Part shown: piece after piece, positions 11,220-22,860 of the stretch
Layout of the letters: the number at the start of each line of letters is the position of its first letter
Numbering within the stretch: the stretch's first letter is position 1
Source: Fermentimonas sp.
GTDB taxonomy: Bacteria > Bacteroidota > Bacteroidia > Bacteroidales > Dysgonomonadaceae
Assembly: GCA_015478775.1 (NCBI GenBank)
Contig: JADMKP010000008.1
Span: 184,076 to 248,075 of the forward strand
Direction of reading: 5' to 3'
Length of the DNA stretch: 64,000 bases
Program-made: the position numbers and the translations under genes
Notes under the pieces: model-generated
The model's database searches: none
What the model saw: the letters and a program-made list of their open reading frames with translations, nothing else
Told to the model about the DNA's origin: nothing

Positions 11220-12551
11220 TTAATTTTTTCTTGTCCTTATAATGGTATTAACTTTCCCTTTACCCAATTTTATATAATCGAGCAGCGGACGGTGCGATGG
11301 ACATATAAAACTGCATGAACCACACTCTATACAGTCAGTTATATGATTCAATTCCGCTTTGTCCCATACCTCGTATTCGGTTAAATTCATCAATAGAGTA
11401 GGGTTAAGTCCCATAGGGCAAACAGTGATACATTTAGTACATCTTATACACTCTTTCATCACTTTTCTCTTAGCTGCTAGAGTTGGAATAATCAATATCC
11501 CTGAGGTTCCTTTAGTAATAGGAATCTCAATACTTGCTAAAGCTTTACCCATCATAGGTCCCCCGCTAACTATCTTCCCTGTTTCATTAGGTAATCCACC
11601 TGCTTCTTCAATAAGATTGTTTAGAGGTGTACCTATTCTAGAAAGAAAATTAGAAGGCTTGCTTACATGGTCGCCGGTAATTGTTACCACACGATCTATA
11701 AGTGGTTTGTTATTCTGAACCGCCTCATATACTGCGAAAATTGTGCCTACATTTTGAACAACTGCTCCCACCGATATTGGTAGTGAACCGCTTGGTACCT
11801 GACGCTTAAGTACGGCATCAATCAACTGTTTTTCACCACCTTGAGGATATTGTACTTTTAAGGGTTGAATCTCAATGTTAGGATATTCTTTAGACAATTT
11901 CTTGAAGCCCGTGATAGCATCTTTCTTATTATTCTCAATGCCTATGATAGCTTTATTTACATTTAAAGCTTTCATTACAATTGTAGTGCCTACTAATATC
12001 TCTTCAGTCTTTTCAATCATTAGTGCATGGTCTGATGTGAGATAAGGTTCACATTCAACCCCATTGATGATTAAAATCTCTGGTGTTGTTCCCGGGGGAG
12101 GTGTAAGCTTAACATGAGATGGAAATGTTGCACCTCCCATACCAACTATACCGGCTTTTTCTATTTTGCTCAATATCTCTGTTGGGGATAAAGTGCATTC
12201 CCTTTTAATTGTATCACTTCTATCAATCGTTTCTTCCCATTCATCACCTTCACAGTTTATGAAAACTGCATCTCTTTTGTAACCGCTCGAATCTAAGGCT
12301 TTATCAATCTTTAGTACCGTGCCAGATACCGAAGAATGAATGTTTGCTGAAACATACCCTACGCTCTTACCTATCTGAGTTCCTACCTTCACTTTATCCC
12401 CTTTCTTAACAATGGGCTGACAAGGTGCACCTATGTGTTGACTCATAGGAATTACTACCTGTTTAGGTATAACAATGGGTTGTATTGCTTTTCCGGCTGA
12501 TATTTTCCTTTCTTTCGGATGAATACCACCAAGTTTGAATGTTTTTAACAT
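11220..12551 (-). CDS. rnfC: Rnf complex subunit C
   Basis: GGIHP, GMGGATFPSHVK, ECEPYLTSD, YPQGGEKQL and two 4Fe-4S motifs (CIRCTKC..CP, CIECGSC..CP). Confidence 0.96.
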   Translation of the reverse strand: MLKTFKLGGIHPKERKISAGKAIQPIVIPKQVVIPMSQHIGAPCQPIVKKGDKVKVGTQIGKSVGYVSANIHSSVSGTVLKIDKALDSSGYKRDAVFINCEGDEWEETIDRSDTIKRECTLSPTEILSKIEKAGIVGMGGATFPSHVKLTPPPGTTPEILIINGVECEPYLTSDHALMIEKTEEILVGTTIVMKALNVNKAIIGIENNKKDAITGFKKLSKEYPNIEIQPLKVQYPQGGEKQLIDAVLKRQVPSGSLPISVGAVVQNVGTIFAVYEAVQNNKPLIDRVVTITGDHVSKPSNFLSRIGTPLNNLIEEAGGLPNETGKIVSGGPMMGKALASIEIPITKGTSGILIIPTLAAKRKVMKECIRCTKCITVCPMGLNPTLLMNLTEYEVWDKAELNHITDCIECGSCSFICPSHRPLLDYIKLGKGKVNTIIRTRKN

Positions 12552-12571: not shown

Positions 12572-13441
12572 TTAAACAGATACTGCAACCGGCTCATCTT
12601 TAATAGCCAGAGGTTTATCTTTTTTAGGTGGAAAATTTAATTCTAGTATCGAGTTAGTAGGACAAACCGGTACACATTTCCGGCATAATCTACACTTATC
12701 ATCAATGATAAAAGCCAGGTTGTTTTCAATAGTTATAGCCTCAAATGGGCATACTTGCTGACACTTTGTACAACCAATACATGCCACTTCACATGATTTT
12801 TTAGCTACACCACCTTTGTCTTTATTCACGCAACTTACATATATGCGTTTAGATTTAGGTCCTTGCTTTCTTAATTCAATTATATCCTTAGGACAAGCCT
12901 TAACACAAGCACCGCATGCAGTGCACTTATCCTCAATTACCTCAGGTAGCAGAGTATCCGGGTTTATATGAATTGCATCAAATGAACATGAATCAACACA
13001 ATCGCCAAGACCATAACACCCAAATGAACAGCCTGTATCACCACCATATAAAGCGGATGCAATCGTACAATTAGAAACTCCATCATAGAGATTCAATCTG
13101 GGTCGATTATCGCAAGTTCCATTACAGCGGACTACCGCTATTTTCTTTACTGCTACAGGAGCTTTTTGACCAAGTATCTCGGCCACAGCGTCCATTGTTT
13201 TTTGTCCTCCAACTGGACAGTTTAAATCGCTTAATGTCTCTGCATTAACGCATGCAGTTGCAAACGAGGAACATCCGGGGAACCCACAGCCACCACAATT
13301 GGCAGCTGGTAAAGCATCTTGAACCTCCTGTATGCGAGGATCTTCTTCTACTTTAAATTTTTGTCCCACAATATAGAGAATTGCCGCGCTTCCCGCACCA
13401 ATAGCTCCTAATGTTGCAACGGCAGATAGTAATACACTCAT
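12572..13441 (-). CDS. rnfB: Rnf complex subunit B; start placed at the ATG at 13441 (MSVLLSAV...) instead of 13516
   Basis: LPAANCGGCGFPGC cluster plus several ferredoxin motifs; the TM anchor begins at MSVLL; the longer ORF would overlap rseC. Confidence 0.93.
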   Translation of the reverse strand: MSVLLSAVATLGAIGAGSAAILYIVGQKFKVEEDPRIQEVQDALPAANCGGCGFPGCSSFATACVNAETLSDLNCPVGGQKTMDAVAEILGQKAPVAVKKIAVVRCNGTCDNRPRLNLYDGVSNCTIASALYGGDTGCSFGCYGLGDCVDSCSFDAIHINPDTLLPEVIEDKCTACGACVKACPKDIIELRKQGPKSKRIYVSCVNKDKGGVAKKSCEVACIGCTKCQQVCPFEAITIENNLAFIIDDKCRLCRKCVPVCPTNSILELNFPPKKDKPLAIKDEPVAVSV

Positions 13442-13445
13442 AATA

Positions 13446-13856
13446 TTAATTTGTTTTTTTAATACTGAATCTAAACGAATTTGCCATTCTGTTTCTGAAA
13501 AAATAGAGTACGCCATAATAAGGAACCAGAGCTACCAAAGAAGCCAAAGCTGCCTTTATATCACTTAAATTCCATATTTTAAGAGAAAGAACTAAGACAA
13601 GTATAAGAAATAGCAGTGGTAACACAAATGCCCAAAAAACAGCTTTATAACCAATTGATTTTTTACCTTCAATTAATACTTTTTCGTTTTCATGAAACAT
13701 ACCTGTAAAATCCCATATATCAACCAACTTTTCTTTTGAATCGGAAGCCATACAGGCTGCTCTTGCATGACAATCACTGCAGGCCGATTTTTGTAGTATT
13801 CGAACTGTAATGTTATTGCCTATTACTTTCTCAATTATTCCTTCGTGTTCAATCAT
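13446..13856 (-). CDS. rseC: RseC/MucC-family protein
   Basis: MIEHEGII, SACSDCHARAAC Cys motif, two C-terminal TMs; heads the rnf operon. Confidence 0.88.
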   Translation of the reverse strand: MIEHEGIIEKVIGNNITVRILQKSACSDCHARAACMASDSKEKLVDIWDFTGMFHENEKVLIEGKKSIGYKAVFWAFVLPLLFLILVLVLSLKIWNLSDIKAALASLVALVPYYGVLYFFRNRMANSFRFSIKKTN

Positions 13857-14138
13857 GAATCACTGGTATAATAAATTCTTATTTAATTTATATGCCTAAC
13901 TAGCCACAAAGTTAGGTATTATTTTTGTGATTATTAAAAGTATTAATGAACTAAATCCCAACTCTATTGTTAATATAAGTTTGCAATTAATTTATAATTG
14001 CCATAGACGGTGTTGATTGACTACAATTAAATAATATAACCCTACTTTTCGACGAACATTTAGCTCAATTTTCTTGTTTAAATGTAGTGTTCTAGCTTAG
14101 TCAACAGATTTTTGTTATATTTTAATACTTCGATTCCT

Positions 14139-16397
14139 ATGATTTTTGATATTGAGATGATTCGGAAGGTTTACGAACAACTTCCTGCTAAAGTGCAACA
14201 AGTTAAAGATGTACTTCAAAGACCTTTAACATTAACTGAAAAAATTCTATTTACGCATCTTTCTACCGATATGCCGGTTAGGAACTATAAGCGTGCAAAG
14301 GATTATGTTGATTTTGCTCCCGACCGTGTAGCAATGCAGGATGCAACAGCTCAGATGGCTTTACTTCAGTTTATGAACTCAGGCAGAACTTCTGTTGCGG
14401 TGCCTTCTACGGTTCACTGCGATCATTTAATACAAGCTTATAAAAACGCTTCTACAGATCTTGAAACAGCTAAAATTACAAATCGTGAGGTTTTTGATTT
14501 CCTTCGCGATGTATCAAACAAATATGGAATTGGATTTTGGAAGCCAGGTGCAGGCATTATACATCAGGTAGTTCTCGAAAACTATGCTTTCCCAGGTGGT
14601 ATGATGATTGGAACCGACTCACATACACCCAATGCTGGTGGTCTGGGCATGATAGCAATTGGTGTTGGTGGTGCCGATGCTGTTGATGTTATGGCAGGCA
14701 TGCCATGGGAGTTGAAAATGCCAAAACTCATTGGTGTTAAGCTTACAGGTAAACTATCCGGATGGAGTGCGCCAAAGGATGTAATTCTTAAAGTTGCAGG
14801 TATACTCACGGTAAAAGGTGGAACAAATGCTGTAATAGAATATTTTGGTGAAGGCGCAGAGTCTCTATCTGCCACAGGAAAAGGAACTATATGTAATATG
14901 GGTGCTGAGGTCGGAGCAACAACATCAATTTTCCCATTCGATTATAAATCTGCCGAATATCTTAATCATACGGGTAGAAAAGAGGTAGCTGATGAGGCAA
15001 TGAAAGTTGTAGAACATCTAAGACCCGATCCTGAGGTGGTTGCTAATCCTGAACTTTATTACGATCAATTAATAGAAATCAACCTTTCAAAGCTAGAACC
15101 GCATATAAACGGTCCATTCACACCCGATGCAGCATATACGATATCTGAATTTGGGGAAGCTGTAAAGAAAAATGGCTGGCCTCGTAGGATGGAAGTCGGA
15201 CTAATTGGTTCATGTACCAACTCATCTTATGAAGACTTAACCAGAGCAGTCTCTATTGTTAAACAGGCTGCAGATGATGAAGTGCCAGTAAAAGCACAGT
15301 TCCTTATCAATCCAGGTTCTGAGCAAATAAGATATACTGCCGAGCGTGATGGCATCCTTCAGGTTTTTGAAGATGCAGGCGCCACAATTATCGCAAATGC
15401 TTGCGGTCCGTGTATAGGACAATGGAAACGTGATGATGAAACAGCAAATGATCGAGTAAATTCAATAGTAACATCGTTCAACCGTAATTTTGCTAAGCGA
15501 AATGATGGCAACCCAAATACACATGCCTTTGTAACTTCTCCTGAGTTGGTTGCTGCCCTAACTATTTCAGGTGATTTATGCTTTAACCCCTTAACCGACA
15601 CTCTTTTAAATGAAAGAGGCGAAGAGGTGAAACTTAAAGAACCACAAGGTTTTGAATTGCCTCCTAACGGATATGATGTAAAAGATGCCGGATTTATTGC
15701 ACCCTCAGATAATGCTGATGGAGTAAGCATTAATATCGATCCAGAATCAAACCGATTGCAAAAACTAGAGCCTTTTGCTCCTTGGAATGGCAATGATTTA
15801 ACAGATTTGCCCCTTCTCATAAAGGTTAAGGGTAAATGCACTACCGACCATATTTCAATGGCAGGTCCTTGGCTTCGCTACAGAGGTCACCTCGATAATA
15901 TTTCTGAGAATATGCTCATCGGTGCTGTAAACATATTTAACGATCAAACAAATACTGTTTTAGATCCCGAATCGGGAGAATATATGACTGTACCCGGTTT
16001 AGCTCGCAAATTCAAAGCTCAGGGCTTGGGATCCGTTGTTGTTGCAGAAGAAAATTATGGTGAAGGATCAAGTCGCGAGCACGCTGCAATGGAGCCTCGT
16101 CACCTTAATGTAAAAGCAATACTTGTTAAATCGTTCGCGCGTATTCACGAAACAAATTTAAAGAAACAAGGAATGTTGGGTCTTACATTTGTTGATAACA
16201 GCGATTACGACAAGATTAGAGAGGGCGATAAAATAAGTATATTAGGTTTAAGAGAGTTTGCACCAGGAAATAATCTGACAATAGAACTTCTTCATACAGA
16301 TGGCTCAAGGGAATCTTTTGAAGCAGCTCACACATACAATGAGCAGCAGGTAGAATGGTTCAAAGCCGGTAGTGCATTAAATGCGATGAAAAGATAA
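14139..16397 (+). CDS. acn: Aconitate hydratase (mitochondrial-type); likely start at ATG 14139
   Basis: [42 protein letters not shown] motifs. Confidence 0.95.
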
Positions 16398-16420
16398 TGT
16401 TACCTTTATAAATTTAACAC

Positions 16421-17677
16421 ATGCAAATTAAAATGAATAAGGGTAAGATGATTATCCCAGATAATCCCACAATTCCTTTTATTGAAGGAGATGGTATTGG
16501 CAAGGAAATCACTACTCAAGTGCAAAAAATACTAGACTCCGCTATAGAAAAGTCTTATAGCGGAACAAAGAAGATAGATTGGCTAGAGGTACTGGCCGGA
16601 GAGAAAGCCTTTACTGAAGTGGGCACATGGTTACCTGCACAAACCATAGATGCATTTCGTAATCATTTTATTGGCATAAAAGGACCCTTAACCACTCCTG
16701 TGGGAGAGGGCATTAGATCGCTAAACGTTGCGCTCCGACAGGAACTTGATCTTTATGTATGCTTGCGACCGGTAAGATGGTTTAGAGGTGTTGCCACTCC
16801 ACTTTTGCATCCCGAAAAAGTAAATGTTACTATTTTTCGCGAAAATACAGAAGATATTTATGCAGGTATCGAATGGGCAGCAGGAACATCAGAATCAAAA
16901 AAAGTTCTCGATTTTCTGCAAAACGAGATGGGAGTAAAGAATATTCGATTCCCAAACAGCTCTTCCTTTGGTATCAAACCAGTGTCTAGAGAAGGAACAG
17001 AGAGGCTGGTTCGATCGGCAATAGAGTATGCTATAGAAAATCAATTGCCCTCTGTAACGTTGGTTCATAAAGGCAACATCATGAAGTTTACAGAAGGTGG
17101 ATTCAAAAAGTGGGGTTACGATCTTGCTGAACGTGAGTTCTCCGATAATACATTCACAGAACATAGATTCAATCAAATTAAGGTTGAGAAAGGTCTAAAT
17201 AAGGCAGTTGAAATGTACAATCATGCAATAGAGTCGGGTAAAGTATTTATTAAAGATGTTATTGCCGATGCTTTCTTGCAAAACACACTGCTCAAGCCCG
17301 AAGAATACTCGGTCATTGCTACACTTAATCTCAATGGAGATTACATCTCCGATCAGCTTGCAGCAATGGTGGGAGGTATAGGTATAGCACCAGGTGCAAA
17401 TATCAATTACCTTTCTGGTCATGCCATATTTGAAGCAACTCATGGCACCGCACCCGATATTGTCGGTAAGAATTTGGCCAATCCCTGTTCATTGTTGCTT
17501 TCTGGTGTAATGATGTTAAATTATATCGAATGGTATGAACCAGCCAAGCTAATAACCTCATCTCTAGAGAAGTTATTCAAAAACGGATATGCTACTTCCG
17601 ACCTTGCACGTTTCATGGAAGATGGTAAACCTCTTTCAACATCTGAGTTTTCGTCAAAAGTAATAGAGTATCTCTAA
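16421..17677 (+). CDS. icd: Isocitrate dehydrogenase, type I (E. coli Icd-like); NAD-type signature
   Basis: KGPLTTPVGEGIRSLNVALRQ, FRENTEDIYAG, HKGNIMKF, EATHGTAPDIVG. Confidence 0.92.
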   Translation: MQIKMNKGKMIIPDNPTIPFIEGDGIGKEITTQVQKILDSAIEKSYSGTKKIDWLEVLAGEKAFTEVGTWLPAQTIDAFRNHFIGIKGPLTTPVGEGIRSLNVALRQELDLYVCLRPVRWFRGVATPLLHPEKVNVTIFRENTEDIYAGIEWAAGTSESKKVLDFLQNEMGVKNIRFPNSSSFGIKPVSREGTERLVRSAIEYAIENQLPSVTLVHKGNIMKFTEGGFKKWGYDLAEREFSDNTFTEHRFNQIKVEKGLNKAVEMYNHAIESGKVFIKDVIADAFLQNTLLKPEEYSVIATLNLNGDYISDQLAAMVGGIGIAPGANINYLSGHAIFEATHGTAPDIVGKNLANPCSLLLSGVMMLNYIEWYEPAKLITSSLEKLFKNGYATSDLARFMEDGKPLSTSEFSSKVIEYL

Positions 17678-17813
17678 AAATAACCGCTTTAATTAAACAA
17701 AAAGAGTATTCCCTATGTTAGAACTACAACAGTTTTTAGTGCCATTCGAAAACTGAATAATAAGTGCAATCAGATTATTAAAAACGGATACAAAAAATCA
17801 ACATTATAATTAT

Positions 17814-19172
17814 ATGAATAATAACGAAATTACTAAAATCTTGTCAGAATCAATTCTGTTTACAAGCGATATCGACAAAGAGTTATTTACCAAAATGGGA
17901 GTAAAGCGAGGACTGCGTAATGAAAATCATTCCGGAGTTCTGGCCGGACTAACTCGTATTGGCGATGTTGTAGGATTCGAGAGACAAGCGGACGGAAGCT
18001 TAAAACCAATTCCTGGAAAACTTTTCTATAGAGGTCTTGATGTTGAGGAGCTGGTTGCCGGTGTGCAAAATGAGAATAGACTGGGATTTGAAGAAACAAT
18101 TTTTCTTCTTCTATCAGGACGTCTTCCTAATAAAACCGAGTTAGATGCTACTCAAAATCTAATTGCACAAACAATGCCCTTGAATCATAAAGCTACAATG
18201 AATATTCTTGCTCTTCAAGGTAAAAATATTATGAATATACTTGCCAGGAGTGTACTCGAATTGTATGTATATGACCAGGATCCTGATAATATCTCACGCG
18301 AAAATCTGATAAGCCAGTCTATTAATTTAATTGCCAAATTCCCAACCATCATTGCATATGCATATCAGGTGTTAAGGCATGATGTTAAAGGACGCTCATT
18401 ACATGTTCGTCTGCCTTACCCACATAAATCGGTTGCCGAGAACTTCCTCTTTATGATGAAAGGTCACGATAAATATACAGAACTGGATATTAAGATACTC
18501 GACCTGGCACTTATCCTGCATGCCGAGCATGGTGGAGGTAACAATTCAACATTCTCGGTACGAGTAACAAGTTCAACCGAAACAGATACATACTCGGCTA
18601 TAGCTGCCGGAATTGGGTCTCTTAAAGGACCTTTGCATGGTGGAGCAAACGTTAAGGTTATGGGTATGCTTTCTGATATGAAAAAGAAGATAACCGACTG
18701 GACAGATGTTAGTCAGGTTGATGCTTATCTCACAAAGGTTTTAAATAAGGAAGAGTTTGATCGTACAGGTCTCATTTACGGTATTGGGCATGCTGTTTAT
18801 ACAATCAGTGATCCTCGTACAGCACTTCTAAAAAATATGGCAAAAGATCTTGCAAAAGAAAAAGGTCGTGAAGATGAATTCGCTTTTATGGAATTAATCG
18901 AAGAGCGTGCAATAGAAGTCTTTATGGATGCTAAAAAACGTACAGCTAAAGGTAATGTTTGTGTCAACGTCGATTTCTATTCAGGCTTTGTTTATGATGC
19001 AATAGGTTTGCCATCTGAAGTTTATACTCCTCTTTTTGCAATGGCTCGTATCGTAGGCTGGTCTGCTCACCGAATCGAAGAGATGAACTTCTCAAGCAAG
19101 AGACTAATTCGTCCCGCATACAAGAATGTACGTGAAATACAAGACTTTGTACCACTAAGCGAAAGAAAATAG
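17814..19172 (+). CDS. gltA: Citrate synthase
   Basis: HAEHGGGNNST, GPLHGGAN, GIGHAVYTISDPR, NVDFYSG. Confidence 0.95.
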   Translation: MNNNEITKILSESILFTSDIDKELFTKMGVKRGLRNENHSGVLAGLTRIGDVVGFERQADGSLKPIPGKLFYRGLDVEELVAGVQNENRLGFEETIFLLLSGRLPNKTELDATQNLIAQTMPLNHKATMNILALQGKNIMNILARSVLELYVYDQDPDNISRENLISQSINLIAKFPTIIAYAYQVLRHDVKGRSLHVRLPYPHKSVAENFLFMMKGHDKYTELDIKILDLALILHAEHGGGNNSTFSVRVTSSTETDTYSAIAAGIGSLKGPLHGGANVKVMGMLSDMKKKITDWTDVSQVDAYLTKVLNKEEFDRTGLIYGIGHAVYTISDPRTALLKNMAKDLAKEKGREDEFAFMELIEERAIEVFMDAKKRTAKGNVCVNVDFYSGFVYDAIGLPSEVYTPLFAMARIVGWSAHRIEEMNFSSKRLIRPAYKNVREIQDFVPLSERK

Positions 19173-19262
19173 AGTTTTTATCAAATGATTAAGTGTTGAA
19201 GTTGAATATTATTAATCAGCTTAAACACAATTGTCTAAATATATAGTGAAAGTTATATTATA

Positions 19263-20489
19263 ATGCAGAAAATTAAAGTAGTAAATCCCGTTGTAGAACT
19301 TGATGGTGACGAGATGACCCGTATAATCTGGTCGTTTATAAAAGAAGAACTTATCCTGCCCTATCTCGATTTAGATATAAAATATTACGATCTCAGCATA
19401 CAGCATCGCGATGCTACGGATGATCAGGTAACAGTGGATGCCGCAGAGGCAATAAAAAAATATAATGTAGGTATTAAGTGTGCAACCATCACACCCGATG
19501 AGGCTCGTGTTGAGGAGTTTGAACTCAAAAAGATGTGGAGATCACCAAATGGTACTATTCGTAATATTGTGGGAGGCACCGTTTTTCGTGAACCCATAAT
19601 CTGCAATAATATACCTCGCTATGTTCAGGGTTGGACCCAACCAATAATCATCGGTCGTCATGCTTTTGGCGATCAATACCGTGCAACAGACACGGTAATA
19701 ACTGGTAAGGGAAAACTCACAATGACATTCACTTCAGAGGATGGCAAAACGCAGAGCTGGGATATATACGATTTTAAAGGTGATGGTGTAGCAATGGCAA
19801 TGTACAACACAGATGAGTCGATATATGGCTTTGCTCGCTCATCTTTCCAAATGGCTTTAAGTAAAAACTATCCACTCTACATGTCCACCAAAAATACCAT
19901 CCTTAAAGCTTATGATGGTCGCTTCAAAGACATTTTTCAGGAAGTTTATGAAAATGAATTTAAAGATGAATTCATAAAAGCAGGCTTAACCTATGAGCAC
20001 CGACTTATAGATGATATGGTAGCCGCTGCCATGAAGTGGAATGGTGGATTTGTATGGGCATGTAAAAACTACGATGGAGATGTGCAATCAGATACCGTTG
20101 CGCAAGGATTCGGTTCACTTGGAATGATGTCATCTGTATTAATTACACCAGATGGCAAAACTGTTGAAGCTGAAGCCGCACATGGCACTGTTACTCGTCA
20201 TTATCGCCAACATCAGCAAGGTAATGAGACTAGTACAAACCCAATTGCATCAATCTTTGCATGGACAAGAGGACTTGCTCATCGTGGTAAATTAGATAAT
20301 AATCAAGAGTTAATAGATTTTTGTAATAACCTCGAGCAAGTTTGCATTCAAACTGTTGAAGATGGCGAGATGACAAAAGATCTTGCAATTCTAGTATATG
20401 GTTCTGATATGCAGCGAAACAACTGGTTAACAACAAAAGATTTCCTCCATGCGCTCAAAAGGAATCTCGAAAAAGCTCTAAAAGATTAA
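19263..20489 (+). CDS. icd: Isocitrate dehydrogenase, type II (eukaryotic IDH1-like), NADP-dependent
   Basis: [58 protein letters not shown]. Confidence 0.95.
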
Positions 20490-20496
20490 AAAACGG

Positions 20497-20608
20497 TTAA
20501 TGATTTAGTTCAAAGTAGAATTAATGATTTAGCTTAAAGTATTTATTAATGATTTAGCTTAAAGTATTTATTAATGATTTAGCTTAAAGTATTTATTAAT
20601 GATTTAGC
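20497..20608. repeat. 25-bp tandem repeat (VNTR): 3 perfect copies, 1 degenerate, 1 partial
   Basis: TTAATGATTTAGCTTAAAGTATTTA at 20521, 20546 and 20571; degenerate 24-nt copy at 20497; partial copy at 20596. Confidence 0.95.
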
Positions 20609-20639: not shown

Positions 20640-20670
20640 ATTAGGGCGACTCTTAACGGGCCGCCCTAAT
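20640..20670. terminator. Hairpin/terminator between convergent icd and fusA2
   Basis: attagggcg / cgccctaat inverted repeat. Confidence 0.7.
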
Positions 20671-20703: not shown

Positions 20704-22860
20704 TTAGTCCTCTTTTTCCTGCTCTTCATATTCCTTAAGCAGTTTTTCCTGAACATCAGATGGAACAAGTTCGTAACCAGAGAGTTTCATAGAAAATGAA
20801 CCTCTACCACCAGTAATAGAGCTCAGTGTGGTTGAGTAATTACTCATCTCCTTTAAAGGCACCTTTGCATTTAGCTTCTCAAAACCTTTCTCACTTTCCA
20901 TACCCATAATAATAGCTCTGCGTCCCTGAAGGTCACTCATTACGTCACCTAAATAATCACCAGGTACCGACACTACAATATTATAGATAGGCTCAAGAAT
21001 CTTTGGAGCTGCGTTCTTAAATGCAGAAATAAAAGCATGTCTTCCTGCAAGCATAAATGAGATTTCATTAGAGTCTACAGGGTGCATCTTGCCATCATAA
21101 ACAATAACTCTCACATCTCTTGCATAAGAACCTGTTAATGGACCTTGCTCCATTCTTGCCATAATACCTTTTAGTATAGCAGGTAAGAAACGAGTATCAA
21201 TAGAGCCCCCAACAATACTATTTACAAATACCAACTTTCCACCCCAATCCAAATTGATTGTTTGGGTGTCGCGGTTCTGAATTTTAAACTCCTGACCGTT
21301 AAATTTATAAATCTCAGGCAGTGCCATACCTTCAGAGTAGGGCTCAATAATTAGGTGTACTTCACCAAACTGACCGGCTCCACCAGACTGCTTCTTGTGT
21401 CTGTAATCTGCGCGAGCCGACTTAGTAATTGTTTCTCTATAAGGAATCTTTGGCTCAAAAAATTCAATATCAATCTTATCATTATTCTCAAGACGCCATT
21501 TAAGAGTTTTAAGGTGAAACTCTCCCTGTCCCGAAACAATAGTTTGTTTCAGTTCTTTCGATATCTCAACCAGCCATGTTGGGTCTTCCTCTCTCATGCG
21601 GTTAAGTGATTCATTCATCTTTTCAGAATTAGATTCACTTACAGCCTTAATAGCTCTGCGATAACGTGGCTCAGGATACTTAATAAAATCAAATTTATTG
21701 TCAGAACCCTTAGCATTAAGGGTGTTGCCTGTACGTACTTCTTTAAGTTTTACCGAAGCACCAATGCTACCAGCATGAAGTTCTTCTGCTCTGTTACGCA
21801 TCTGTCCCGCAACAGTATATAATTGTGCAAGTCTCTCTTTAGACTGGCGATTAACGTTTGTAAAATCATCACCCTCTCTCACCACACCGCACATTACTTT
21901 AAAATAACTCACCTCGCCAATATGTGGCTCAACTGTCGTTTTAAAGAAATAAAGGCTTGCTGGCTCGTTGTCAACCGGATGCACCTCAACTCCTTCAGAG
22001 TTAACTGGTGATGGCATATCGTCTGGCGATGGAGCAACCATACTCAAAAAGTTCATAATACGGTGAACTGCCATATTCTTTTCGCCCGAAGAGCAGAATA
22101 CCGGATATAAACTTTGATTAAGCATTCCCTTATGAATTCCGTCACGCATCTCTTCTTCAGATAGTGTTCCCTGATCAAAGAATTTCTCCATCAAACCCTC
22201 ATCATTTTCAGCAGCAGCCTCCAATAAAACCTGATAGTAATCTCCTGCTCTCTCTTTCTCGCTTTCTGGTATATCTAATACTTGTGGTGCGGTGTCATCT
22301 GATTCCCAATGATAATATTTCTGTTTCAAAACATCAATGATACCGTTAAAAGTGGTACCACTACCAATAGGATATTGAACCGGTGTAATTTTATTTCCAT
22401 AAACCTCTTTAAGGCTTGCAATCGTGTTATCATAGTCGGCTTTCTCATGGTCCATCTGGTTAACAAGCAAAACTACAGGTTTCTTAAGTGCATCGGCATA
22501 ACGAAATTGGTTAATTGTGCCAACTTCAACTCCACTGGTAGCATCAATAAGCATAAGAGCCATATCAGTAACATTCAGTGCAGTAACCACTCCCCCTACA
22601 AAGTCATCCGAACCAGGGCAATCGATAAAGTTCATCAATTTATCTTTCCATTCATACGATATCACAGACGGAAATACAGAATATCCATACTCCTTTTCCA
22701 CTGGGAAATAATCACTTGCGGTGTTTCCTCCATCTATGGTACCACGTCGTCTTAATAGACCACACTCGAAAAGCATAGCTTCAGCGAGAGTGGTCTTGCC
22801 TGACCCCGAATTTCCAATCAGGGCTATGTTCTTAATTTGGTTTGTCTTGTAAACTTTCAT
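20704..22860 (-). CDS. fusA2: Elongation factor G paralog (EF-G2)
   Basis: EF-G domain order with G1 GNSGSGKTT, switch II DCPGSDDF (no catalytic His), G4 NQMD, HKKQSGGAGQFGEV and an insertion in domain IV. Confidence 0.92.
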   Translation of the reverse strand: MKVYKTNQIKNIALIGNSGSGKTTLAEAMLFECGLLRRRGTIDGGNTASDYFPVEKEYGYSVFPSVISYEWKDKLMNFIDCPGSDDFVGGVVTALNVTDMALMLIDATSGVEVGTINQFRYADALKKPVVLLVNQMDHEKADYDNTIASLKEVYGNKITPVQYPIGSGTTFNGIIDVLKQKYYHWESDDTAPQVLDIPESEKERAGDYYQVLLEAAAENDEGLMEKFFDQGTLSEEEMRDGIHKGMLNQSLYPVFCSSGEKNMAVHRIMNFLSMVAPSPDDMPSPVNSEGVEVHPVDNEPASLYFFKTTVEPHIGEVSYFKVMCGVVREGDDFTNVNRQSKERLAQLYTVAGQMRNRAEELHAGSIGASVKLKEVRTGNTLNAKGSDNKFDFIKYPEPRYRRAIKAVSESNSEKMNESLNRMREEDPTWLVEISKELKQTIVSGQGEFHLKTLKWRLENNDKIDIEFFEPKIPYRETITKSARADYRHKKQSGGAGQFGEVHLIIEPYSEGMALPEIYKFNGQEFKIQNRDTQTINLDWGGKLVFVNSIVGGSIDTRFLPAILKGIMARMEQGPLTGSYARDVRVIVYDGKMHPVDSNEISFMLAGRHAFISAFKNAAPKILEPIYNIVVSVPGDYLGDVMSDLQGRRAIIMGMESEKGFEKLNAKVPLKEMSNYSTTLSSITGGRGSFSMKLSGYELVPSDVQEKLLKEYEEQEKED

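Follow-up and report, generated by a model that had tools for sequence, protein, structure and literature searches.

Introduction

Bacteroides fragilis encodes aconitase, isocitrate dehydrogenase (IDH) and citrate synthase in an acnA-icd-citrate synthase operon, BF638R_3569-3567, according to the passage of PMC11304471 that cites Baughn and Malamy (2002, PNAS 99:4662). Here we describe a related four-gene cluster, acn-icdI-gltA-icdII, with two IDH genes from different subfamilies. It lies in a 64,000-nucleotide stretch of DNA (the window; contig JADMKP010000008.1) from Fermentimonas sp. The source genome (2.9 Mb, 13 contigs) belongs to an anaerobic Bacteroidales bacterium of the Proteiniphilum/Fermentimonas group, and its closest public relatives are metagenome-assembled genomes (MAGs) labelled Proteiniphilum or Fermentimonas (Dysgonomonadaceae, Bacteroidales). 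We put at roughly 0.72 the probability that the cluster is a single operon serving the oxidative branch in a split tricarboxylic acid (TCA) cycle, pairing a type I enzyme (IDH-1) that prefers nicotinamide adenine dinucleotide (NAD) with a type II enzyme (IDH-2) specific for its phosphate (NADP).

Cofactor choice has been traced to few residues in both subfamilies. In type I enzymes Lys344 and Tyr345 (Escherichia coli numbering) are changed to Asp and Ile in every known NAD-IDH, and these residues serve as dependable landmarks (PMC3590139). The triad Asp-Ile-Ala marks NAD use and Lys-Tyr-Val NADP use, while Lys-Ile-Ala is found in a dual-specificity enzyme from Methylobacillus flagellatus (PMC5397045). 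NADP use in type II IDHs is set by Arg314/His315 with Lys260', Asp253' and Thr327, as established by mutagenesis (PMC4813160), and the converse experiment on type II specificity is also available (PMC4420465). Two IDHs within one genome have a precedent in Xanthomonas campestris pv. campestris, which has a type I Asp-Ile NAD-IDH and a second IDH, as reported in the part of PMC12707098 that cites Lv et al. (2016). Our literature search returned no description of a type I NAD and type II NADP pair in one operon, and no enzymology for any Bacteroidales IDH.

Gene identities

Open reading frame calling and searches with Pfam and NCBIfam profiles identified four plus-strand genes at window positions 14139-20489, with all family scores above the curated cut-offs. 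The first, acn (14139..16397), encodes a mitochondrial-type aconitate hydratase (PF00330 and PF00694; TIGR01340, 1122.7 bits against a cut-off of 825). It starts at an ATG at 14139, with an in-frame TTG upstream at 14112. The product of icdI (16421..17677; 418 residues, P0001) is a homodimeric type I IDH by both NF005425 (612.9 bits, cut-off 490) and TIGR00183 (582.9 bits, cut-off 567.3). Citrate synthase of the PRK14032 subfamily is encoded by gltA (17814..19172; NF010635, 633.5 bits, cut-off 426), and a eukaryote-like type II IDH by icdII (19263..20489; 408 residues, P0002; NF006156, 747.7 bits, cut-off 335; TIGR00127, 739.1 bits, cut-off 397). The acn-icd-gltA order on one strand, with an aconitase of mitochondrial type, is that of the B. 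fragilis-type operon. Three PF00180 genes are present in the whole genome: icdI, icdII and one LeuB-like gene.

A preliminary description of this DNA had called the two IDHs unrelated. This is overstated; they are distant homologues from different subfamilies of one superfamily, both carrying PF00180 and sharing 26% identity over 148 residues (E 1e-5). The motifs that it quoted are all found in the translations (HGTAPDIV and GYATSD in IDH-1, HGTVTRHY and AAAMKW in IDH-2), and the determinants on which it based opposite cofactor use are the correct ones (PMC3590139, PMC5397045, PMC4813160 and PMC4420465).

Predicted cofactor use of IDH-1

The closest structures to IDH-1 are those of Bacillus subtilis IDH (1HQS, NADP), at ~62% identity and 547 bits, and Acidithiobacillus thiooxidans IDH (2D4V, an NAD-specific homodimer). 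An engineered NAD-using E. coli enzyme (1ISO) outscores wild-type E. coli IDH against IDH-1 (487.9 vs 479.7 bits). HMMER alignments to the E. coli, B. subtilis and A. thiooxidans enzymes indicated that every substrate and metal ligand is kept (Ser113, Asn115, Arg119, Arg129, Arg153, Tyr160, Lys230, Asp283, Asp307 and Asp311, E. coli numbering). A substrate other than isocitrate is scarcely credible for IDH-1. PF00180 does include enzymes acting on homoisocitrate, 3-isopropylmalate or tartrate, and IDH-1 gives weak profile matches to them, but these scores fall far under the subfamily cut-offs and the genome has a separate LeuB. The retention of all isocitrate-specific residues, Ser113 and Asn115 included, and the similarity to B. 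subtilis IDH also argue against such a role.

At the six cofactor positions (292, 344, 345, 351, 391 and 395 in E. coli), the alignment gives K-D-I-A-S-R for IDH-1, corresponding to Lys292, Asp346, Ile347, Ala353, Ser393 and Arg397. Wild-type E. coli IDH has R-K-Y-V-Y-R, the engineered NAD enzyme R-D-I-A-K-S and the A. thiooxidans enzyme R-D-I-A-G-A. The Asp-Ile-Ala triad of NAD-specific type I IDHs is complete in IDH-1 (Asp346, Ile347 and Ala353) and recurs in 117 of its 119 closest database homologues. Among the other 2'-phosphate ligands, Tyr391 has become Ser393, and Arg395 is kept as Arg397. In IDH-1, a type I enzyme of the B. subtilis/A. thiooxidans kind, Asp346 would hydrogen-bond the 2'/3'-hydroxyls of the adenosine ribose and repel a 2'-phosphate, and the phosphate contacts made by Lys344, Tyr345, Val351 and Tyr391 are gone. 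We therefore expect, with good confidence, a clear preference of IDH-1 for NAD. The retained arginine at position 395 is the one discordant feature; it tempers this confidence and keeps dual cofactor use in consideration as an unlikely alternative.

A dual-specific IDH-1 would use NAD+ and NADP+ at comparable rates, making the pair partly redundant rather than opposite. Besides Arg397, Lys in place of Arg292 favors this reading, as do the natural dual-specificity type I IDH of M. flagellatus (PMC5397045) and the variation at position 344 in sister lineages (Asn, Thr, Ala or Gly). However, position 344 of the known dual enzyme is occupied by Lys instead of Asp, an acidic residue there repels the 2'-phosphate, and all characterised Asp-Ile-Ala enzymes cited in PMC3590139 and PMC5397045 are NAD-specific. 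Public annotation instead makes both IDHs NADP-dependent, the second gene then representing redundancy, dosage or a backup copy. IDH-1 indeed passes two equivalog models named 'NADP-dependent IDH' (NF005425 and TIGR00183), and its relatives bear this name at NCBI. Such models score the whole fold and not the cofactor pocket, in which four of six NADP contacts are replaced in IDH-1, one of them by Asp, and misannotation of the same kind is documented in the M. flagellatus paper (PMC5397045). We regard two NADP enzymes as very improbable.

Predicted cofactor use of IDH-2

Over its full length, IDH-2 can be aligned with Sinorhizobium IDH (3US8), porcine IDH2 (1LWD) and human IDH1/2. Its Arg312/His313 fall on Arg314/His315 of the porcine enzyme. 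Lys258 (equivalent to Lys260), the aspartates of the LIDDM motif (Asp251, equivalent to Asp253) and the ETSTNP motif (Thr327) are also present, and position 257 is Ala. The Arg-His pair is found in all 86 relatives matching the motif pattern, which had no match in the other 10 of 96. NADP+ specificity would be conferred by Arg312/His313 together with Lys258 and Asp251 of the partner subunit, and IDH-2 is predicted to be NADP-specific. Opposite cofactor preference of IDH-1 and IDH-2 is well supported by sequence.

Organization of the gene cluster

The gaps between acn and icdI, icdI and gltA, and gltA and icdII are 23, 136 and 90 base pairs (bp), respectively; the last of these measures only a few bases in relatives. 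A motif scan of the divergent intergenic region upstream of acn (13857..14138) found candidate Bacteroidetes -7 boxes (TAnnTTTG) at 13920 and 13976 on the plus strand and at 13907 on the minus strand. The motif is absent from the icdI-gltA and gltA-icdII gaps. Downstream, a GC-rich hairpin (20640..20670; -17.1 kcal/mol, z = -3.0) separates icdII from the convergent fusA2 gene and is likely a bidirectional terminator ending the operon. Generic sigma-70 promoter and intrinsic-terminator scans performed no better than on shuffled controls. The operon-like block that the preliminary description had proposed is supported by the genus-wide conservation of gene order, the few-base gltA-icdII gaps of relatives and the placement of TAnnTTTG upstream of acn only. 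Co-transcription of acn, icdI, gltA and icdII is likely on these grounds.

Immediately beyond the stop codon of icdII lie 4.5 tandem copies of a 25-bp unit, TTAATGATTTAGCTTAAAGTATTTA (20497-20608), which has no other exact occurrence in the genome. The cluster is bounded by fusA2 (20704..22860, minus strand), which encodes EF-G2 (NF058620 EFG2_Bacteroid, 1297 bits).

Distribution in the genus and the order

Searches of 24 other genomes of the genus detected type II in 23 of them and type I in 20. Wherever both occur the order is always acn-icdI-gltA-icdII, and this synteny holds at over 20 loci in the clade. Whole-genome searches of two members (G018 and G022) detected no type I gene anywhere. 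Type II is the stable copy in the genus and type I the dispensable one. An even draw of 250 other Bacteroidales genomes, each at least 90% complete, yielded type I in 86, type II in 37 and both in two. A predicted NAD-type type I and NADP-type type II enzyme thus share a gene cluster conserved in one genus; elsewhere in the order the two types nearly exclude each other.

The two-IDH genomes of the order sample (G098 and G217) belong to one family, and their IDH genes are adjacent, in the order acn-icdII-icdI also seen in Prolixibacteraceae MAGs. This arrangement forms a second, independent two-IDH cluster in four Prolixibacteraceae-like loci (L103, L125, L126 and L101; family f73). A different type of citrate synthase (~28% identity) comes next there, and the type I enzyme has Asn/Asp-Ile-Ala, with Arg395 also lost. 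The order acn-gltA-icdII occurs in Paludibacter, Limibacterium and related MAGs, whose IDH-2 shares 80-83% identity with that of the window. Evolutionarily, the window locus combines a Bacteroides-type acn-icdI-gltA with a Paludibacter-type acn-gltA-icdII; most Bacteroidales retain a single IDH.

Two further loci deserve mention. In Limibacterium fermenti, a partial IDH-2-like match (L049:9792-10385; 64% identity over ~200 residues) lies 1.6 kb downstream of an intact icdII and is possibly a gene fragment. A Candidatus Azobacteroides MAG (L065) has gltA and acn on the strand opposite a nearby type II icd, and its aconitase falls within gut lineages that have type I only, which we take as further evidence of repeated sorting of the two IDH types.

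Classes of type I enzyme in Bacteroidales

Genomic context and cofactor residues were compared for 25 type I loci retrieved from other families. Three classes can be distinguished. Of 14 stand-alone type I genes, 13 show the complete NADP signature of E. coli, R-K-Y-V-Y-R, and one has Ile at 351. Genes embedded in acn-icdI-gltA (Parabacteroides, Tannerella, Coprobacter and others) are without Lys-Tyr; they mostly carry Asn-Ile-Val, and position 344 is also Asp, Thr, Ala or Gly in some. The Proteiniphilum clade has K-D-I-A-x-R almost uniformly (138 sequences). The Lys-Tyr enzymes make up a stand-alone clade of their own in the IDH-1 tree.

We had considered that Asp-Ile might occur only where a type II enzyme coexists, and Lys-Tyr where type I is alone. 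This fitted the first nine families sampled and was rejected on wider sampling, because sole type I enzymes in acn-icdI-gltA operons also have Asn/Asp/Ala-Ile in place of Lys-Tyr.

The 'NADP-dependent' name is probably wrong for the operon-type type I clade of Bacteroidales, as judged by these pocket residues. Misannotation would then be systematic, covering the operon type I IDHs of Proteiniphilum, Parabacteroides, Tannerella, Coprobacter and others, all so named yet without Lys344/Tyr345. This would bear on redox balances in metabolic models of both biogas-reactor and gut Bacteroidales.

Database homologues of two icd genes (those of L116 and L118) are operon-type type I IDHs: P0276-P0462, from Parabacteroides, Tannerella, Coprobacter, Prevotellaceae MAGs and others, mostly have Asn-Ile-Val at 344/345/351 and are named 'NADP-dependent' by NCBI. 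One homologue in the gut-type clade (P0363, 588 residues) combines PF00180 with GNAT acetyltransferase domains (PF13673, PF00583 and others), and may represent an IDH carrying its own acetyltransferase or a gene-calling fusion.

Evolution of the two IDH genes

The IDH-1 tree unites the Proteiniphilum clade with the gut-type operon clade at 95% support in the Shimodaira-Hasegawa-like approximate likelihood ratio test (SH-aLRT), apart from the Lys-Tyr clade and the Prolixibacteraceae enzymes. This grouping indicates that the icdI of the window is an orthologue of icd in the B. fragilis-type operon. In a tree of concatenated Acn, GltA and IDH-2, the Proteiniphilum species without icdI (L112/G018, L042, L039 and L113 with L035) are scattered among icdI carriers, implying at least four losses of icdI. 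In the aconitase tree, rooted with Prolixibacteraceae, lineages with both types, with type I only and with type II only are interleaved. An old two-IDH cluster followed by reciprocal loss would fit this pattern at least as well as insertion of icdI, and our quick trees cannot decide between the two.

Horizontal acquisition of the type II gene, raised in the preliminary description, finds no support: there is no sign of recent foreign origin, the nearest relatives of icdII are all from Bacteroidales with the same operon context, and the IDH-2 tree tracks taxonomy. A split with 99% support separates Dysgonomonadaceae, Paludibacteraceae and allies from Flavobacteriaceae and others, and sequences cluster strongly by taxonomic label. 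Synteny and this tree together speak against a recent horizontal origin of icdII. A 1560-bp contig of a 'Parachlamydiaceae' MAG (L060) encodes an IDH-2 with 87% identity to that of the window, placed by the tree within Dysgonomonadaceae; it is most likely a binning contaminant.

A broader scenario can be offered tentatively, though we hold it to be rather doubtful as a whole. An ancestral Bacteroidales oxidative-branch cluster with both IDHs would have undergone reciprocal loss, with gut Bacteroidales keeping type I, Paludibacter type II, and the Proteiniphilum group and Prolixibacteraceae both. Type I enzymes that coexist with type II would have become fully NAD-specialised, and the operon-type 'NADP-dependent' clade, probably including the gut genera, would as a whole be devoid of the NADP determinants and really be NAD-linked or dual. 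If so, the redox bookkeeping in metabolic models of gut Bacteroidales would be wrong.

Possible physiological role

The gene content is consistent with an oxidative branch that would convert oxaloacetate and acetyl-CoA to citrate, isocitrate and 2-oxoglutarate. Its last step would be open to two isofunctional enzymes, each of a different IDH subfamily, such that a single flow of carbon could yield either NADH or NADPH. Having both IDHs probably allows a flexible choice of pyridine nucleotide during synthesis of 2-oxoglutarate for glutamate. Repeated loss of the NAD copy suggests that the benefit of this flexibility is conditional. The genome has two glutamate dehydrogenase paralogues (G000 C13:4832-5566 and C7:225074-225811; L134 and L135), which match the 'NADP-specific' PRK14031 (874 bits) in one case and PRK14030 (855 bits) in the other, a pair that may parallel the two IDHs. 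No AceK was found in the genome.

The two enzymes might instead run in opposite directions, the NAD enzyme oxidatively and the reversible type II NADP enzyme reductively carboxylating 2-oxoglutarate, as might occur in these proteolytic fermenters where 2-oxoglutarate comes from amino acids or succinate, for instance. The reversibility of NADP-IDHs is established, and the glutamate dehydrogenase pair would suit such a scheme. For Bacteroides, two routes to 2-oxoglutarate are reported, one from isocitrate and a reductive one from succinate, in the passage of PMC11304471 that cites Baughn and Malamy (2002). A shared operon argues for a common direction and common conditions, however, and the sequence gives no pointer to direction. 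We consider this division of labor improbable.

Several observations weigh against the reading that we prefer, one operon with an NAD-preferring IDH-1 and an NADP-specific IDH-2 in the oxidative branch. Arg395 is retained and Arg292 replaced by Lys in IDH-1, so some residual NADP+ use (dual specificity) is possible, and the NCBI pipeline names these type I proteins 'NADP-dependent isocitrate dehydrogenase'. The calls of a promoter and a terminator are no more than consensus matches. At least four losses of icdI in the genus show that the cell can do without the two-enzyme state. Nor does NADPH supply hinge on IDH-2, because genes for PntB transhydrogenase and glucose-6-phosphate dehydrogenase are present as well. 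The same losses are repeated natural knock-outs of the NAD copy in one genus, and the locus thereby offers a natural system for NAD-versus-NADP choice at the isocitrate step.

Neighboring Rnf cluster

The divergent arrangement noted in the preliminary description is real, with genes for an RseC-like protein, RnfB and RnfC on the minus strand upstream of acn, outside the operon. The first gene of this cluster encodes an RseC/MucC-family protein (13446..13856; PF04246, 92 bits) and is kept beside rnfB in loci of the genus. It is followed by rnfB (12572-13516; NF005504 RnfB-like Fe-S protein model, 459.5 bits) and rnfC (11220-12551; TIGR01945, 564.6 bits). An inverted repeat with a 10-bp stem (13892-13919) lies ~36 bp upstream of the RseC-like start; it was flagged by the terminator scan and may be an operator or leader hairpin.

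The proximity of Rnf had been taken as a hint of redox balancing. The rnf cluster adjoins acn across the genus, including in species that have no icdI (L112, L113, L035 and L042). Adjacency was not seen within 1.9-3.3 kb upstream of acn in the more basal L047, Limibacterium (L049) and Paludibacter loci. Since it does not track the two-IDH state across genomes and persists without icdI, we treat the adjacency as incidental, and the synteny pattern speaks against a functional Rnf link of the IDH pair.

Comparison with known systems

The enzymes themselves are ordinary members of well-studied subfamilies, and the three-gene core is a known one; it is the arrangement and its distribution that are new. 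The window shares with the B. fragilis operon the acn-icdI-gltA order, a mitochondrial-type aconitase (TIGR01340) and an oxidative branch to 2-oxoglutarate in an anaerobe. Its icdI groups with the operon icd of Parabacteroides, Tannerella, Coprobacter and others, orthology being shown via these relatives only. The B. fragilis operon does not have the fourth gene, a type II IDH after gltA, and gut-type operon enzymes mostly have Asn-Ile-Val in contrast to the Asp-Ile-Ala of the window. The converse holds for Paludibacter acn-gltA-icdII, where a type II IDH likewise follows gltA (74-77% identity for Acn and 80-83% for IDH-2) but acn and gltA have no type I gene between them.

At the protein level, IDH-1 resembles the A. 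thiooxidans NAD-IDH (2D4V) and the engineered E. coli enzyme (1ISO) in its type I fold, a B. subtilis-like insert, the HGTAPDI(A/V)G...ANP motif, the Asp-Ile-Ala triad and the loss of Tyr391. It differs from both in having Arg at 395, where theirs is Ala or Ser, and Lys at 292. IDH-2 matches the type II NADP-IDHs of Sinorhizobium meliloti (3US8), pig (1LWD), human (IDH1) and Bifidobacterium longum (BlIDH) with bit scores of 630-670, and keeps their Arg314/His315, Lys260, Asp253, Thr327 and catalytic residues (PMC4813160). Unlike these, it has Ala at 257 (theirs Gln or Ser), and its gene is located inside a bacterial acn/gltA operon. The second IDH of Xanthomonas campestris is of the monomeric type, and the IDH genes of that organism are not known to lie in one operon. 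The window, in contrast, pairs a type I with a type II IDH within what is likely a single operon.

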